Shown one piece after another: positions 6,598 through 57,815 of a stretch of DNA of 58,428 bases. How positions within the stretch are numbered: the first letter of the stretch is position 1; each line of letters opens with the position of its first letter. The stretch is from an uncultured Eubacteriales bacterium (GTDB lineage Bacteria > Bacillota > Clostridia > TANB77 > SIG350). The position numbers were made by a program, and so were the translations under genes. The stretch spans positions 1 through 58,428 of the forward strand of contig CAZFOR010000004.1 in the NCBI GenBank assembly GCA_964520895.1, in the 5' to 3' direction. The notes below the pieces were generated by a model, which was given only the letters and a program-made list of their open reading frames with translations, did no database searches and had not been told where the DNA came from.

Positions 6598-8172
6598 ATG
6601 AAAAAGAACGTTGTTAAAACTTTTAGTTTTATATTTATATTTACATTAATATCAAAAGTATTAGGATTACTTAGAGATGTTTTTTTTGCAAAATATTATG
6701 GAACAGGATATATTGCAACAGCTTTTTTTGCATCAATTAGAATACCTACACAGTTACTAGATATAGGTTTAGGTGCTGCGATAGCATCAACATTTATACC
6801 TGTATTTAATGAAATAGGACAAAAAGATGGAAAAGAAAAGGCAGACAAATTTGCTAATAACTTTATAAATATTATTGCATTAATATCAACTGCAATATCA
6901 ATTATTGGTATAATATTTGCACCACAAGTAGTTGAGTTGTTAGCAGGTGGATTTGAGGAGCAGACATTTAATTTAACAGTTCAATTAATTAGAATAATGT
7001 TTCCAATGATTATATTTACAGCTATTGCATTTTCATTTGTAGGATTTTTACAGTCATATGGTCAGTTTAATATACCTGCAATGATAAGTGGTGTATCAAA
7101 TATAGCAATAATTATATATTTAATATTATTTAGAGAAAAATTTGGTATACACGGTGTTGCATGGTTTATGTTAGTTGCATGGGCACTTCAAGTTATAATA
7201 CAATTACCATCTGCATATAAACATGGGTATAGATTTAAGCTTAAGATTGATTTTAAAGATCCAAACATACGAAAAGTTTTTTATTTAGCAATTCCAATTA
7301 TAATTAGCACATCAGTATTACCAATAAATAACTTAGTATGTACAAGACTTGCATCAGGTATGGGTGATAGTGCTGTTGCAGCATTAGAATATTCATATAA
7401 GATATATATTGTATTAGTAGGTGTATTTACATATGCAATAGGAAATATGATTTTTCCTGAACTTTCAAGAGCAAGTGCAAATAGTGATAAAACAACATTT
7501 ACTGATATAATTCAAAAAGGTATTAGAATAATGTCATATTTATTAATACCATTAACATTAGGGTTTATAATTTACAGAACTGATATTATATCAGTTATAT
7601 ATCAAAGAGGTGAATTTGATATTAATTCAACACTATTAACATCATCTGCATTACTATTTTATGCAATAGGAATGATAGGTTTTGGTATTGTTGAAATAAT
7701 GAATAAATCCTTTTATGCAAGACAAGATGCAAAAACGCCACTTGTAGTAGGAATTATAGTTGTTATTACAAATGTTATATTAAGCTTTATACTTTCAAGA
7801 TATATAGGATTTACAGGACTTGCATTATCAACATCATTAACATCAATAATAAATGCAATATTACTTACAATATTTGCAAACAAAAAAAATGGTGGAATTA
7901 TTACAAAACATTTAATATATACAATTATTAAAATAATTATATGTACAATTATAATGGCGCTTACTGTATATATAATAAATAATGCATTAATTTCAATATT
8001 GTTTGGTAGTACAATTATTAATATAATAAGAATAGGTATAGGGACAATATTAGGTTTAATGATGTATTATGGATTTAGTTTAATATTAGAAATAGAGGAA
8101 AGTAATATACCTATTAATTTTATTAAAAACAAACTTCAGACAAATGGGGACGGAGGCAAATTGTCTGATTAA
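6598..8172 (+). CDS. murJ: Lipid II flippase MurJ (MviN family)
   Basis: 524 aa and polytopic. The N-terminus LGLLRDVFFAKYYGTG is typical of MurJ. The last 11 codons (QTNGDGGKLSD) are encoded by repeat copy A. Confidence 0.85.
   Translation: MKKNVVKTFSFIFIFTLISKVLGLLRDVFFAKYYGTGYIATAFFASIRIPTQLLDIGLGAAIASTFIPVFNEIGQKDGKEKADKFANNFINIIALISTAISIIGIIFAPQVVELLAGGFEEQTFNLTVQLIRIMFPMIIFTAIAFSFVGFLQSYGQFNIPAMISGVSNIAIIIYLILFREKFGIHGVAWFMLVAWALQVIIQLPSAYKHGYRFKLKIDFKDPNIRKVFYLAIPIIISTSVLPINNLVCTRLASGMGDSAVAALEYSYKIYIVLVGVFTYAIGNMIFPELSRASANSDKTTFTDIIQKGIRIMSYLLIPLTLGFIIYRTDIISVIYQRGEFDINSTLLTSSALLFYAIGMIGFGIVEIMNKSFYARQDAKTPLVVGIIVVITNVILSFILSRYIGFTGLALSTSLTSIINAILLTIFANKKNGGIITKHLIYTIIKIIICTIIMALTVYIINNALISILFGSTIINIIRIGIGTILGLMMYYGFSLILEIEESNIPINFIKNKLQTNGDGGKLSD
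8136..8168 (+). repeat. 33-nt GC-rich palindromic unit, copy A: TCAGACAAATGGGGACGGAGGCAAATTGTCTGA
   Basis: Exact string comparison with the copies at 8237, 50078, 57744 and 57783. Confidence 0.95.
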
Positions 8173-8236
8173 TTAAAAAGTTGAAAAGATTAGAAAATAT
8201 TTATATAGATTTTTAATCTTTTTTTATAGATTATAA

Positions 8237-8269
8237 TCAGACAATTTGCCTCCGTCCCCATTTGTCTGA
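8237..8269 (-). repeat. 33-nt GC-rich palindromic unit, copy B, inverted relative to A
   Basis: Its reverse complement is identical to copy A. Confidence 0.95.
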
Positions 8270-8274
8270 ACTCA

Positions 8275-9504
8275 TTATTTTTGCTGTATTAAAACTAACC
8301 CAGTTTTATCAATACTTGTTTTTACATTAACATTAAAGCATGAGTATCTATAATTTTGTGACCAATTTACTTTTTCCCATTCATCCCATGTTAAAAAATT
8401 TTTTACTGCAGATCTTCCAAATCCAGATATATCTGAATTGAATACTTTAGATGTTTTATATAAATAATCTTTAATATTACTTTCTAAGATAAAACTTAAT
8501 TCTCTTTCAATTTCTTTTGAATTTTCTTCATTAATATAATCAACTTCATTGTTTACAGATATTATGTTAGCTTTAAGTGATATATCAATATTAATCAATG
8601 GCACAGAATCTACAAAATCAACTTTTATTTTTGTGTTTTTATCTTTAACTAAATTAAAAGAGATTATATTATCAGATGACATTGGATCATATATAGAGTA
8701 ATGTGACTGAGTAAATGAGTTATTTGTCATTAAATAATATATTGTTTCTTCACCTGTTAATTCACCAATCATTTTACAATTACGAAAGACTGCAAGACCT
8801 ATTGTTTCTGTTTCTGGGCCACCCTTTTTATTGAGTTCGCCTGCAGTAACATTAGCATCATTTGGTTTATATGATTGTTGATGTATTTGTTGTGAGTGAG
8901 TAGTATTGCTAATATTGGACAATAGTGCTACAGGTTCTCTATATGTTGATTGAGATGCTAATATAAATCCAAATAAATATGAATTGGCTGTAAATCCAGT
9001 ATATGGATAAGAAGTTAATAATAATTCATAAAATTTTGATATGTTTTTTTCTAATCCTGGTTTAGTATTATTAATGTAATTTTGAGCGCTACATTTTGAA
9101 ATTAATATATACATATTAGTTCTAAAATTCCTATCATTAAAAATTGTTGTTGTATACTCTTCTATATCTTCAAAAGCTATTTCCTCACTAAAAACAACTA
9201 TTTTGTTATGAGATAAATTTAATTGTTTACTAATATACGAATTTACTAAACTTATAGCTGAATAAATTGAAGGAGCATCAATTGTTGTAACAGTTGACAA
9301 TTTATCAAAATTTGCATCATCAGATTCAATAGCAATAGGATTTGCAAACTCGAAAGTTACTTCAATATTACCTGGATTTGTTTTACTTTTATCAATTCCC
9401 ATTGCTATAACATAAGCAGCTTCATTTATTTCTGTTTTATCATAACAACCAGTTAGAAAAAATAAGCACAGAGCACTAATTGCTATTAACAATATTTTTT
9501 TCAT
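8275..9504 (-). CDS. Spore germination protein, Ger(x)C-family lipoprotein
   Basis: Lipobox LFFLTGC after a signal peptide, followed by the GerAC-like motif YVIAMGIDK. ATG at 9504 follows AGGTGA. It is the last cistron of the ger operon. Confidence 0.8.
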   Translation of the reverse strand: MKKILLIAISALCLFFLTGCYDKTEINEAAYVIAMGIDKSKTNPGNIEVTFEFANPIAIESDDANFDKLSTVTTIDAPSIYSAISLVNSYISKQLNLSHNKIVVFSEEIAFEDIEEYTTTIFNDRNFRTNMYILISKCSAQNYINNTKPGLEKNISKFYELLLTSYPYTGFTANSYLFGFILASQSTYREPVALLSNISNTTHSQQIHQQSYKPNDANVTAGELNKKGGPETETIGLAVFRNCKMIGELTGEETIYYLMTNNSFTQSHYSIYDPMSSDNIISFNLVKDKNTKIKVDFVDSVPLINIDISLKANIISVNNEVDYINEENSKEIERELSFILESNIKDYLYKTSKVFNSDISGFGRSAVKNFLTWDEWEKVNWSQNYRYSCFNVNVKTSIDKTGLVLIQQK

Positions 9505-10601
9505 ATTCACCTCTATTTTTTGTATATTTAATTTTTGCAATAACCATTAATATTAATGGATATACAAATACGGATGGAATTATATAATAATCTTTTAGCA
9601 CTAGTTGTAAATCAATTGTAGATAAAAGATTTTTAGGTAAAGTAGATATATAAAAAACAACTAGAGCTATAATTATATTTGGTATAATACTTTTTTTCTT
9701 TTTAGTATTAACCAAAATATTATATGAATATACTAATGCATGAAAACATGATACTAATACTAAAAAAGAAATTAATAAAAAGCATAATATAAATGGTATT
9801 TCTGTCCTTTGAAAAAAGGAGTTTAAATTAGTTAAATTTGATAATTCATATAGTGAAAATAGATTGCGTGATATATATGGATATGCAAATATTAATACAT
9901 TTGCTGTTATACATAAAAACATAAAAATAAAGGATGCTATTATATACCATTTTGATACTTTTTTAATTTCTTTTAGATTTTGTAGAAAAGGTACAAAAAC
10001 AAAAAGAAATGTAATTCCAATATATGAAGTTATTCTCTCGATACCGTTTATGAATATGGTATCTAATCCATTACCAAGTATGGGAAACAACCTTTCAAAT
10101 TTAAAAAATTGTGCTGAAAAAGCAAGTGTTAATATTATTACAAAACCACAAATAGGAACAATGTATCCACTTGCTCTAATTATTCCTTCTAAACCACAAA
10201 TACTTCCGTATTACCATTGCAATAACAAAAAAAGACGATATATATATTAAAGGAGATGTATTAAAAAGTAGTATTTTAACTGATTCACTAATTTGTCTTA
10301 AAAATATAAATGTTATTATAAAAAAAAGAGATAAGTACATAAAAACAGTTATTTTGTATAATATTTTTCCGCCTACAAATTTAGAAATGTCAAAGATGTT
10401 TTTACCTGAAAATGGTTTATACAATTTATAAATTATATACATATATATAAACACAATAACAAAAATGTAAATGCTAAGTATGGGACCAGCATTTCCAACA
10501 AGTCTTGCATAGAAAAGTGGAAGGGCTAGAATTAACTGAGCTAAAGTAAAATTAAAAAAATAGCAAAACACACTAAAAACGGATGTGTATTTCAGGTTCA
10601 T
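9476..10601 (-). pseudogene. Spore germination protein Ger(x)B (amino-acid-permease-like), reading frame broken once
   Basis: ORFs 10176..10601 and 9476..10090 lie in different frames and together span about 375 codons. The downstream frame is open back to 10210 (…YGSICGLEGIIRASGYIVPICGF…), so the shift lies in about 10176-10213. Confidence 0.7.
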
Positions 10602-48600: not shown

Positions 48601-50073
48601 ATGAAATTAAGTTATTTATTACAAAATGTTGATGTTAAAAATATTGATGAAATTGAGGATATTGATATTACTAATATTGAAAGTGATTCAAGAAAGGTTA
48701 AAGAAAATACACTTTTTATCTGTATAAAAGGTGAAAAGGCAGATGGCCATGAATATATTGAAGAAGCTATTGAAAAAGGTGCAATTGTAGTAGTTATAAA
48801 CGAGGATTATGTTAAAGAGGTAAAAAAACTAAAAATACCATATGTTGTTGTTACAGATAATGAAAAAGCAATGGCACAAATTGCTTGTAACTATTTTGAT
48901 AATCCATCTAAAAAATTTAAATTAGTTGGTATTACAGGCACAAAAGGGAAAACAACTACAACTTATATGATTAAAAATATATTAGAAAAAGCAGGTAAAA
49001 AAGTTGGATTAGTAGGAACTATTGCTAATATGATAGGTGATAAGAAATATGATACTCAAAATACAACACCTGGTGCAATTGAATTACAAGCTTTATTTTA
49101 TAAGATGGCACAAGAAAATGTTGATGTAGCCGTAATGGAAGTATCATCACATGCACTTGCAATGGATAGAGTATATGGATGTGATTTTAATATAGGTGTA
49201 TTTACTAATTTATCACAAGAACATATGGATTATCATAAAACTTTTGATAATTATGTTGAAGCAAAAGCAAAATTATTTAAAATGGCTAAACAAGGTTTTG
49301 TAAATTGTGATGATGTTTATTCACTAAGAGTAGAGAAAATGGCAGAATGTCCAATTACAACATTTGGTTTAGATAATGGACCTAAAATATTTGCAAAAGA
49401 TTTGATTATAACTAATAGTTATGTTGAATTTAAATTAATGGTAAATAACAGACCAGAAAGAGTTAGAGTAGGAATACCAGGTAGATTTACAGTATATAAT
49501 TCATTAGCTGCAATTAGTGTGGCTACTGCATTAAATATTGATTTTGAATATATAAAAGCAGGACTTGAGGATGTAAAAGTTCCAGGAAGATCTGAAATGG
49601 TACCTAATATGCATGGTAAAACAATAATGATAGATTATGCACATTCACCAGATAGTTTAGAAAACATATTAAAAGCGGTTAAATCATATACAAAAGGAAA
49701 ATTAATATGTGTATTTGGTTGTGGCGGTGATAGAGATAATGCTAAAAGACCTATGATGGGTGAAATATCAGGTAAAATAGCAGATTTTACTGTAATAACA
49801 TCAGATAATCCAAGAACAGAAGATCCTAAGAAAATAGTAGAGCAAATTGAAGAAGGTATGAAGACTACAAAAGGTAGATATGTTGTTGTGCAAGATAGAA
49901 CTAAGGCTATTGAGTATGCAATTAAGATGGCTGGTAAGTATGATATTGTTGTACTTGCAGGTAAAGGACATGAAACATATCAAATACTTAAAACAGGGAA
50001 AATACATTATGATGAAAGAGAAATTGTTGCACAAATACTTAAGAAAATGCCTATTCCAGAGGATTTAATTTAA
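48601..50073 (+). CDS. murE: UDP-N-acetylmuramoyl-L-alanyl-D-glutamate--2,6-diaminopimelate ligase
   Basis: GITGTKGKTTT P-loop and the DNPR motif (SDNPRTEDP) typical of meso-DAP-adding MurE. Confidence 0.9.
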   Translation: MKLSYLLQNVDVKNIDEIEDIDITNIESDSRKVKENTLFICIKGEKADGHEYIEEAIEKGAIVVVINEDYVKEVKKLKIPYVVVTDNEKAMAQIACNYFDNPSKKFKLVGITGTKGKTTTTYMIKNILEKAGKKVGLVGTIANMIGDKKYDTQNTTPGAIELQALFYKMAQENVDVAVMEVSSHALAMDRVYGCDFNIGVFTNLSQEHMDYHKTFDNYVEAKAKLFKMAKQGFVNCDDVYSLRVEKMAECPITTFGLDNGPKIFAKDLIITNSYVEFKLMVNNRPERVRVGIPGRFTVYNSLAAISVATALNIDFEYIKAGLEDVKVPGRSEMVPNMHGKTIMIDYAHSPDSLENILKAVKSYTKGKLICVFGCGGDRDNAKRPMMGEISGKIADFTVITSDNPRTEDPKKIVEQIEEGMKTTKGRYVVVQDRTKAIEYAIKMAGKYDIVVLAGKGHETYQILKTGKIHYDEREIVAQILKKMPIPEDLI

Positions 50074-50077
50074 ATTA

Positions 50078-50110
50078 TCAGACAAATGGGGACGGAGGCA
50101 ATTTGTCTGA
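50078..50110 (+). repeat. 33-nt GC-rich palindromic unit, copy C (one A>T change that lengthens its own stem)
   Basis: TCAGACAAATGGGGACGGAGGCAATTTGTCTGA, starting 4 nt after the murE stop and ending 22 nt before the mraY start. Confidence 0.95.
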
Positions 50111-50132: not shown

Positions 50133-51086
50133 ATGAATATACAAATGAAATATTTATTATTATCATTTGCAATAACAGTAGTATTAGGGTTAATAGTAAT
50201 ACCTGTACTTAAAAAATTAAAAATAGGTCAAGTAGTAAGAGATGATGGACCTAATTCACATTTATCAAAAGCAGGAACACCTACTATGGGTGGAATTATA
50301 ATATTAATAGCAATAATTTTATTATCAATAGTTCTTTATATAAAATATCCACATATTTTACCTATTGCAATTATTACATTAGGATATGGTATTATTGGAT
50401 TTATTGATGATTTTATAAAACTTATATTAAAAAATCCAAAAGGATTGGCACCAAGGTATAAGATGCTTGGACTATTAATAGTTGCAGTAATATTTGTAAT
50501 ATATTTACAATACATATTAAATATAGGAACAGATATCCAAATACCATTTTTGAAAATATTTATTAATCTACCGATGTGGATATATATACCATTTGCAGTT
50601 TTTGTAATATTAGCTTGTACAAATGCATTAAATTTAACAGATGGATTAGATGGTTTAGCTAGTGGAGTAGTAGCTATAATAATGACATTTTTTACAATAG
50701 TTAGTGTTATGTATAATAATATTGAGATGTCACTTTTTAGCAGTATTGTAACAGGAAGTGTAGTAGGATTTTTGTTGTTTAATTTAAAACCTGCTAAAGT
50801 ATTTATGGGAGATACTGGTTCACTTGCATTAGGTGGAGCTTTTTGCGCAGTGGCACTTTATTTGAAATTACCATTAGTATTAATTATAGTAGCTGCAATT
50901 TGTGTTGCAGAAGCAGTTTCAGTTATAATTCAAGTACTATATTTTAAGAAAACAGGGAAGAGATTTTTTAAGATGGCACCATTACATCATCATTTTGAGT
51001 TATCAGGTTATAGTGAGTGGAAAATTGTATGGATATTTTGGATAATTACAATAATTTTATGTGTTATTGGAATTTTTGCAATATAA
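50133..51086 (+). CDS. mraY: Phospho-N-acetylmuramoyl-pentapeptide transferase
   Basis: GTPTMGG…DDFIK…NLTDGLDGLA…MGDTGSLALGG. Confidence 0.95.
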   Translation: MNIQMKYLLLSFAITVVLGLIVIPVLKKLKIGQVVRDDGPNSHLSKAGTPTMGGIIILIAIILLSIVLYIKYPHILPIAIITLGYGIIGFIDDFIKLILKNPKGLAPRYKMLGLLIVAVIFVIYLQYILNIGTDIQIPFLKIFINLPMWIYIPFAVFVILACTNALNLTDGLDGLASGVVAIIMTFFTIVSVMYNNIEMSLFSSIVTGSVVGFLLFNLKPAKVFMGDTGSLALGGAFCAVALYLKLPLVLIIVAAICVAEAVSVIIQVLYFKKTGKRFFKMAPLHHHFELSGYSEWKIVWIFWIITIILCVIGIFAI

Positions 51087-57743: not shown

Positions 57744-57776
57744 TCAGACAAATGGGGACGGAGGCAAATTGTCCGA
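57744..57776 (+). repeat. 33-nt GC-rich palindromic unit, copy D
   Basis: TCAGACAAATGGGGACGGAGGCAAATTGTCCGA (one T>C change relative to copy A). Confidence 0.95.
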
Positions 57777-57782
57777 AATATT

Positions 57783-57815
57783 TCGGACAATTTGCCTCCG
57801 TCCCCATTTGTCTGA
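57783..57815 (-). repeat. 33-nt GC-rich palindromic unit, copy E, the exact inverted partner of D
   Basis: Its reverse complement is identical to copy D. The spacer is AATATT. Confidence 0.95.

Follow-up and report, generated by a model that had tools for sequence, protein, structure and literature searches.

A dispersed family of 33-nt hairpin repeats supplies the end of MurJ in a Clostridia genome and is probably spread by a RAYT/TIRYT-type nuclease

We analysed a 58,428-nucleotide (nt) stretch of DNA from an uncultured Eubacteriales bacterium (the window, which is contig C4 of the assembly that we call G000; 1,270,212 bases, 78 contigs, 26.0% G+C). Our subject is a pair of inverted 33-nt units at the junction of murJ and a gerAC-type gene, the dispersed repeat family to which the pair belongs, and a nuclease gene elsewhere in the genome that is framed by the same unit. 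The initial annotation of the window had described two identical inverted units at 8136-8168 and 8237-8269 that bracket a terminator-like hairpin. We found that the two units match each other with 0 mismatches and that an AT-rich hairpin (8183-8223) running into a tract of seven T (T7) lies in the spacer between them. The features of the window that concern the family are these:

6598-8172, plus strand: murJ (lipid II flippase; PF03023, 324.8 bits, residues 30-463), whose last 11 codons are repeat-derived
8136-8168, plus strand: left unit, 33 nt, in the G-rich form TCAGACAAATGGGGACGGAGGCAAATTGTCTGA, encoding MurJ residues QTNGDGGKLS(D)
8169-8236, no strand: 68-nt spacer between the units, with the murJ stop codon (8170-8172), the AT-rich hairpin and T7
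8237-8269, minus strand: right unit, 33 nt, the exact reverse complement of the left unit
8275-9540, minus strand: gerAC-type germination lipoprotein gene, convergent with murJ
50078-50110, plus strand: single unit with 1 mismatch, between a Mur ligase gene (48601-50073) and mraY (50133-51086)
57744-57815: tight doublet (units 57744-57776, plus strand, and 57783-57815, minus strand), a 72-nt perfect palindrome made of two units and AATATT, 13 nt downstream of cysS

Allowing at most 3 mismatches, the window contains five matches to the unit, as compared to a mean of 0.00 in 100 dinucleotide-preserving shuffles, none of which held a single match. At the murJ/gerAC junction, the last 37 nt of the murJ open reading frame (ORF) consist of the left unit and four further bases, with the TAA stop starting 2 nt past the unit, and the gerAC stop codon lies 5 nt from the right unit. 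The trinucleotide ACT is present on both sides of the pair. Without the 134-nt element, murJ and gerAC would have almost no spacer between them and no terminator. Beside this repeat, the ORFs between 9476 and 12301 are fragmented.

The left unit overlaps the end of a protein-coding gene, and the initial annotation had claimed that the last 11 MurJ residues are encoded by the repeat. The MurJ ORF of this genome ends in IKNKLQTNGDGGKLSD before the stop, with IPINFIKNKLQTNGDGGKLSD as its terminal residues. In contrast, an orthologue from the same genus (71% identity) ends in IPVDYIKNRKNTVNE, and two orthologues from the same family end differently again. When we compared MurJ with orthologues that lack the repeat, the QTNGDGGKLSD tail was present in 0 of 3 same-family orthologues and in 0 of the 12 metagenome homologues whose tails were readable (from 14 loci); the metagenome scan with MurJ returned homologues of at most 57% identity and no conspecifics. 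Since these orthologues do not have QTNGDGGKLSD, the MurJ tail is repeat-derived, as had been claimed, and replaces a few native residues. With the Pfam MurJ domain ending at residue 463, the new tail is probably neutral. There may be a second case of an altered protein end in this genome: at G000:C20:14070-14075, the TAA stop of a 2-hydroxyacid dehydrogenase gene abuts a unit of a doublet and the protein is two residues shorter than three orthologues, so that the repeat may have trimmed its end.

To map the family, we searched the whole assembly with the inner 31 nt of the unit. At up to 3 mismatches, we found 20 matches in the genome and 0 for a reversed control, which shows that the repeat occurs elsewhere in the genome and leaves the initial annotation unrefuted on this point, and a looser search (up to 7 substitutions) returned 25 copies, again as compared to 0 for the control. 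Together with one degenerate arm that was located through its core, the family amounts to 26 units on 14 contigs; their 19 sites are seven inverted doublets (with spacers of 6, 6, 8, 8, 21, 43 and 68 nt), ten singles and two units that flank one gene. Unit borders are sharp and the flanks beyond the 33 nt are merely A/T-rich. All sites are intergenic except for the murJ overlap. When we mapped the copies against gene ends, 12 of the 19 sites lay within 10 nt of a stop codon, as compared to 4.8% of random intergenic positions (binomial 6e-12, under a rough ORF model), and thus the preference for 3' gene ends that had been suggested is borne out. Several other sites are found a few bases upstream of the ribosome-binding site of the next gene. 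Relative to their flanking genes, approximately seven singles are in the C-form and three in the G-form, which is not a significant difference. The suggestion that the units are elements of the repetitive extragenic palindrome (REP) or bacterial interspersed mosaic element type parked at the ends of convergent genes therefore holds for the REP-like character and the position at gene ends; it does not hold for convergence, as only one of the six doublets other than murJ/gerAC lies between convergent genes. The copies are inverted pairs and singles and not direct arrays, which rules out a CRISPR array.

In the initial annotation, the arms of the unit were described as a palindrome able to pair around a GC-rich core. 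The arms do pair; however, as DNA, the single unit folds into a hairpin with an 8-bp stem (TCAGACAA/TTGTCTGA), and its 17-nt loop holds the GC-rich core, with GGGGACGG (–6.1 kcal/mol, z –4.1). Single units are weak hairpins in general (–6 to –8 kcal/mol as DNA), and the doublets are very stable when folded (–44 to –79 kcal/mol). At murJ/gerAC, the entire 134 nt form one composite hairpin, with –79.2 kcal/mol for the plus-strand RNA (z –15.2; 0 of 200 shuffles as good) and –75.2 kcal/mol for the minus-strand RNA (z –16.3). The inner AT-rich hairpin and the T7 that follows it look like the terminator of murJ. A consensus terminator scan made no call at 8183-8223 because it requires at least three G-C pairs in the stem. 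The doublets, being strong hairpins as RNA or DNA, may terminate or stabilise transcripts. We also searched for known RNA families. The only Rfam match in the window at gathering thresholds was a tRNA, and at E of at most 1 the region 8080-8320 returned only sub-threshold plant miRNA precursors and sRNAs, as it would for any long hairpin.

To examine how the units arrived at their sites, we compared spacers with those of relatives. Between the Mur ligase gene and mraY, the spacer is 17-22 nt in all three relatives and 59 nt in G000, where it consists of 4 nt, the unit and 22 nt that align with the ribosome-binding region of the relatives. Between spoIIIAE and spoIIIAF, the spacer is 20 nt in a relative (G002) and 125 nt in G000, where it consists of a 109-nt doublet, including its 43-nt spacer, and 16 nt that match the ribosome-binding region of G002. 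Judged from these alignments, the single unit at mraY and the whole doublet at spoIIIAE/spoIIIAF are insertions. At two further places, behind cysS and behind the 2-hydroxyacid dehydrogenase gene, the downstream context differs in the relatives and offers no empty site for comparison.

The initial annotation had proposed that the murJ/gerAC pair is a 134-bp insertion resembling a miniature inverted-repeat transposable element (MITE) with a 3-bp target duplication. Read as a classical MITE, the pair would be one insertion with terminal inverted repeats (TIRs), moved by a DDE transposase and bordered by duplicated ACT; the ACT on both sides, the ATTA around the single unit at 50078 and 33-nt arms that could act as TIRs all fit this picture. 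However, only 4 of 17 sites have direct repeats of at least 3 nt (ACT at murJ, ATTA at mraY, TTT and AAA), two of these are A/T runs, their lengths vary (3 to 4), and at the other 13 sites the repeat is 0-1 nt. A regular target duplication is absent, and the proposed duplication fails as a property of the family. The classical MITE also has to contend with three wide doublets whose spacers of 21, 43 and 68 nt are unrelated to one another, with sharp-ended single units at ten sites, and with the finding that units frame no gene other than one for a Y1 nuclease, described below (no search aimed at DDE transposases was made). Y1 (HUH) relatives of the IS200/IS605 type make no target duplication. 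We therefore regard a classical MITE as highly improbable. In the looser sense of a non-autonomous derivative, the MITE-like description stands: the doublets share the G-form to C-form topology of the pair around the nuclease gene, and they look like non-autonomous derivatives of that pair.

The arms of the doublets carry information on how the doublets behave. In six of the seven doublets, the two arms are identical, as compared to an average of 3.7 differences between units. Variants that are private to one doublet and present on both of its arms were found in four doublets, and of the four tight doublets, three form perfect palindromes of 72-74 nt. In the seventh doublet, the arms differ at four outer positions, where the doublet meets a gene end. 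Doublets thus usually behave as single pieces. For the murJ/gerAC pair, the alternative to a single doublet block is that two single units inserted separately, each beside a stop codon, around an older murJ/ger terminator hairpin. In favour of separate insertions, the convergent genes would otherwise have nearly no spacer and no terminator, singles favour places next to stop codons, the 68-nt spacer is unlike the spacers of the other doublets, and both arms equal the consensus, as is expected of fresh copies. At spoIIIAE/spoIIIAF, in contrast, G002 has no counterpart of any part of the doublet, its 43-nt spacer included, and all seven doublets have one orientation, four of them with the private variants mentioned above on both arms. 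We consider two separate insertions at murJ a serious alternative, if somewhat less probable than one block.

We next describe the gene that is framed by the units. The initial annotation had suggested looking for a RAYT-type (REP-associated tyrosine transposase) gene in the genome, and we found one: an HUH-Y1 nuclease gene on contig C7, outside the window, bracketed by the same 33-nt unit.

G000:C7:34435-35274, minus strand: HUH/Y1 nuclease gene, with a match to PF01797 (Y1_Tnp)
C7:34395-34427: unit, 7 nt beyond the stop of the nuclease gene
C7:35297-35329: inverted unit, 22 nt before the longest start of the nuclease gene

From the first start, the ORF encodes 279 amino acids; a start at MARISRK after a GGAG site, giving 258 amino acids, is more likely. 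The two units that frame the gene differ at four positions. With respect to the coding strand of the nuclease gene, the G-rich form is upstream and the C-rich form downstream, and the same order is found in all seven doublets. The best-scoring model for the protein was the NCBIfam model REP_Tyr_transpos (NF047646; 62.3 bits), as compared to 23.8 bits on the IS200 model (cut-off 55). We predicted a structure with AF2 from 12 homologues (pLDDT 83), and the top fold match of the model was 4ER8 (E 3.6e-6, TM 0.71 on the target), a structure of a REP hairpin in complex with E. coli TnpA-REP; the transposases of IS608 and ISDra2 rank next. In the predicted model, the C-terminal part of the protein is helical. 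The HUH histidines, the catalytic Tyr and YIHxNP are invariant in all 12 aligned homologues. Among helix-turn-helix (HTH) models, HTH_23 matches two of the 12 homologues and HTH_28 matches one; the G000 protein matches none at E of at most 0.01. The genome has a second PF01797 match (65.8 bits), an ordinary IS200 TnpA fragment at C62:1-330 that runs off the contig end, and contig C62 carries no copy of the 33-nt unit. Next to the upstream unit of the nuclease gene is a T-box leader (Rfam RF00230, 110 bits; G000:C7:35390-35610), and the ORF on the far side of this leader from the nuclease gene is presumably isoleucyl-tRNA-synthetase-like.

When we searched relatives for the repeat and for the gene, we found that the 33-nt unit itself is present in 0 of 40 relatives, same genus included, and that a degenerate unit pattern, scanned against one genome of each species, returned 0 stretches (G000 itself was possibly outside that scan). 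Nuclease homologues, in contrast, are present in 12 of the 40 relatives (single-protein query) and in 63 of 200 other genomes of the order (profile query), with 1-6 matches per genome. In a large protein collection, 547 proteins match the nuclease at E of at most 1e-10, and any name that these carry is 'transposase [Clostridia bacterium]'. The nuclease family is not always single-copy: G192, G091, G045 and G057 are examples, with up to six matches per genome, some of which have internal stop codons.

The layout around these homologues resembles that in G000. Among the first 12 loci, 11 have GGGAC(G/A) upstream of the gene and its complement downstream. Among the best 30 loci of a wider search, which come from related genomes and are not independent trials, the motif is upstream in 26, downstream in 25 and on both sides in 23, with the reverse layout in 3; over these loci, the motif totals are 46 in the G-form against 4 upstream and 37 in the C-form against 6 downstream. 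An exact enclosing stem of at least 6 bp is present in 58 of 83 units, as compared to a mean of 16.9 and a maximum of 29 when 3' flanks were swapped between loci (200 trials). The units of homologous loci contain 49 distinct stem sequences, and the loop motif GGGAC(G/A) is kept. When we counted GGGGACGK over whole genomes, it exceeded a reversed control in G000 (19 versus 4), G024 (124 versus 4), G008 (27 versus 6) and G007 (47 versus 14), all of which carry the nuclease gene, and in most genomes without the gene the count was at or under the control. The repeat of G024 is far more abundant than that of G000 and forms both tandem arrays with a period of approximately 31 nt and inverted pairs separated by 36 nt (for example, C1:35230-35412, C1:49722-49792 and C2:11236-11305).

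We also looked for the same stretch in other samples, and found it in runs of ten studies that comprise bioreactor, wastewater, manure and landfill metagenomes. We examined contigs from runs X5, X8, X11 and X12, which represent four studies; these contigs break at units and cannot show rare variants. In X5, contigs cover 7800-8147, 8149-8263 and 8241-8568 with 0-1 differences, and in X11 contigs carry the flanks of three other copies, one of them beside the nuclease gene. Because contigs of two other studies have the same junctions, the junctions are not an assembly artefact. The examined sites look fixed.

Several of these observations could also be explained if the units were host-selected signals (terminators, mRNA 3' stabilisers or a protein-binding site) and the Y1 gene an incidental neighbour or passenger. 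The 12 of 19 sites close to a stop codon, the fold energies of the doublets, the presence of the same insertion sites in other samples and the co-variation of the arms are all as such signals would predict. However, the unit is absent from all 40 relatives, even within the genus, so it is not a conserved signal; the orthologous spacers work without it; single units are only weak hairpins; and 23 of 30 loci across the order show the same layout of gene and hairpins, with stems that differ. We consider it improbable that host selection alone accounts for the family, while a secondary, exapted role of the units may exist and is compatible with, and part of, the nuclease-driven explanation.

Taken together, these data suggest that the 33-nt unit is a REP-type DNA hairpin, that the murJ/gerAC pair is an inverted doublet like a REPIN, and that the family is spread in trans by a RAYT/TIRYT-type nuclease (TIRYTs being RAYT-like genes framed by inverted repeats); we give this a probability of roughly 80%. 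A single HUH-Y1 nuclease (G000:C7:34435-35274) would make and spread the family in trans through single-stranded DNA. It would recognise the hairpin, in whose loop the motif GGGAC(G/A) is conserved, bind this hairpin on single-stranded DNA, and cut and join at the unit borders, thereby copying units and doublets; we infer binding, cutting and joining because these steps are established for IS200/IS605 and for E. coli TnpA-REP. At murJ, the left unit would have landed in or right after the last codons, and the native tail (KNTVNE in the nearest relative) would have given way to the 11 repeat-encoded residues. Together with the inner hairpin and T tract that it contains, the composite hairpin of –79 kcal/mol may then end or stabilise the murJ and ger transcripts as a by-product.

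A number of findings weigh against this explanation. The score of the protein on NF047646 is under the curated cut-off of 80 bits, and a sequence search of the PDB with the protein returned only 4ER8, weakly (E 0.26). GGGGACGK is also enriched in G009 (161 versus 39) and G016 (30 versus 13), in which neither query detected a nuclease homologue. Same-genus and same-family genomes have neither the unit nor the nuclease gene, so that the system may have been gained in G000 or lost in these relatives. The family is small, at 26 units, and its unit has no GTAG tag of classical REPs on either strand and keeps its conserved motif in a long loop. The relatives G001-G003 provide no empty murJ/gerAC site, as other genes are downstream of murJ there, and the identity of the two murJ arms says little on its own because both equal the family consensus. 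No contig of X5, X8, X11 or X12 skips the element; we saw no mobility in contigs in which rare forms are undetectable. Finally, the literature as far as covered contains no demonstration that an enzyme of this subclass acts on repeats of this kind.

A more specific version of the nuclease-driven explanation, which we put forward only tentatively and think rather unlikely to hold in full, is that the enzyme reads the loop word GGGAC(G/A) while the stems drift, so that each genome comes to have a private family, that it builds the doublets itself by strand-switch or fold-back joining, and that it places copies behind stop codons. Doublets built by the enzyme would explain the perfect 72-74-nt palindromes, the private variants shared by both arms and the one fixed orientation, which is the same as around the gene.

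Among known systems, the closest are the REP/RAYT systems, specifically the TIRYT or 'TIRtron' type, to which this genome would add a case of a known kind. Di Nocera 2013 (PMC3733652), in the sections covered, describes TIRYTs as RAYT-like genes framed by inverted repeats, some of which have a GGGGWSAS motif, and reports that some TIRYT repeats are moderately abundant dispersed families arranged in dimers. The G000 system appears to resemble these in that its Y1 gene is longer than classical RAYTs, has a predicted C-terminal helical extension and is framed by inverted repeats with a motif close to GGGGWSAS, and in that its flanking repeat is also a moderately abundant dispersed family in dimers. 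The G000 unit, GGGGACGG, fits the GGGGWSAS motif at seven of eight positions, and relatives have exact GGGGACAC or GGGGACAG, as well as GGGACGG/GGGACGT. Unlike the long TIRs of TIRYTs, the G000 repeat is compact, a hairpin of 33 nt whose loop holds the motif. In the portions of Quentin 2018 (PMC6006769) covered, TnpA-REP subclass 2.1 probably corresponds to TIRYT and has C-terminal HTH-type extensions (Bac_DnaA_C, HTH_23, HTH_28), and no REP-like sequences were found near subclass 2.1 genes. In contrast to that account, REP-like units do flank the G000 gene; its likeness to the subclass is judged from published descriptions.

As in classical REP/RAYT and REPIN systems, known from E. coli and Pseudomonas, a single-copy HUH-Y1 gene is framed by inverted copies of an intergenic palindrome, the arms of inverted doublets change together, there is no regular target duplication, the copies are located behind genes and the best fold match is 4ER8. 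Unlike classical REPs, the unit has no GTAG, its 17-nt loop with a conserved motif replaces a short loop, its host is an AT-rich Gram-positive and it is present as 26 units as opposed to hundreds. We also considered the CGTC-tagged REPs, since the reverse strand of the core, CCGTCCCC, contains CGTC and head-to-head dimers predominate. As described in the covered sections of Di Nocera 2013 (PMC3733652), however, CGTC REPs have a terminal unpaired CGTC tag, 8-9 bp stems, 4-5 nt loops and no transposase, and we rejected this family because the G000 family has its motif within a loop of 17 nt and is associated with a transposase gene. With IS200/IS605 elements, the nuclease shares its enzyme superfamily (PF01797) and hairpin recognition on single-stranded DNA would be expected; it differs from them in scoring below the IS200 cut-off, and in that its ends are inverted copies of one hairpin.

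Our literature search found no paper on this repeat, nor any that treats REP/RAYT repeats in Clostridia in detail, within a search that did not extend to supplementary species lists. The main text of Di Nocera 2013 (PMC3733652) does not mention 'Firmicutes' or 'Clostridi', and its species lists (Figure 9, Additional files 4-5), like those of Quentin 2018 (PMC6006769), could hold Clostridia examples. Bertels 2017 (PMC5581495), in the part covered, restricts the remark 'also found in the Clostridia' to Group 1 RAYTs and gives an average of 12 occurrences for their flanking 16-mers. In the literature covered, such systems have thus been characterised mainly in Proteobacteria, and that remark on Group 1 RAYTs is the only one on Clostridia in the sources as far as they were available.

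For this organism, the odd GC-rich palindrome and the odd MurJ tail would both be by-products of a repeat family that probably has its own nuclease, and the tail should not be annotated as conserved. With two empty-site comparisons, the family would provide a clear REP/RAYT-like (TIRtron-type) case in AT-rich, small-genome Clostridia, and the loop motif that is kept while stems change across 30 loci gives a concrete hypothesis for recognition. If the enzyme does read the loop word, the system would be a compact and tractable model for domesticated Y1 nucleases that recognise and copy hairpins, and it would be a source of new protein tails and terminators.

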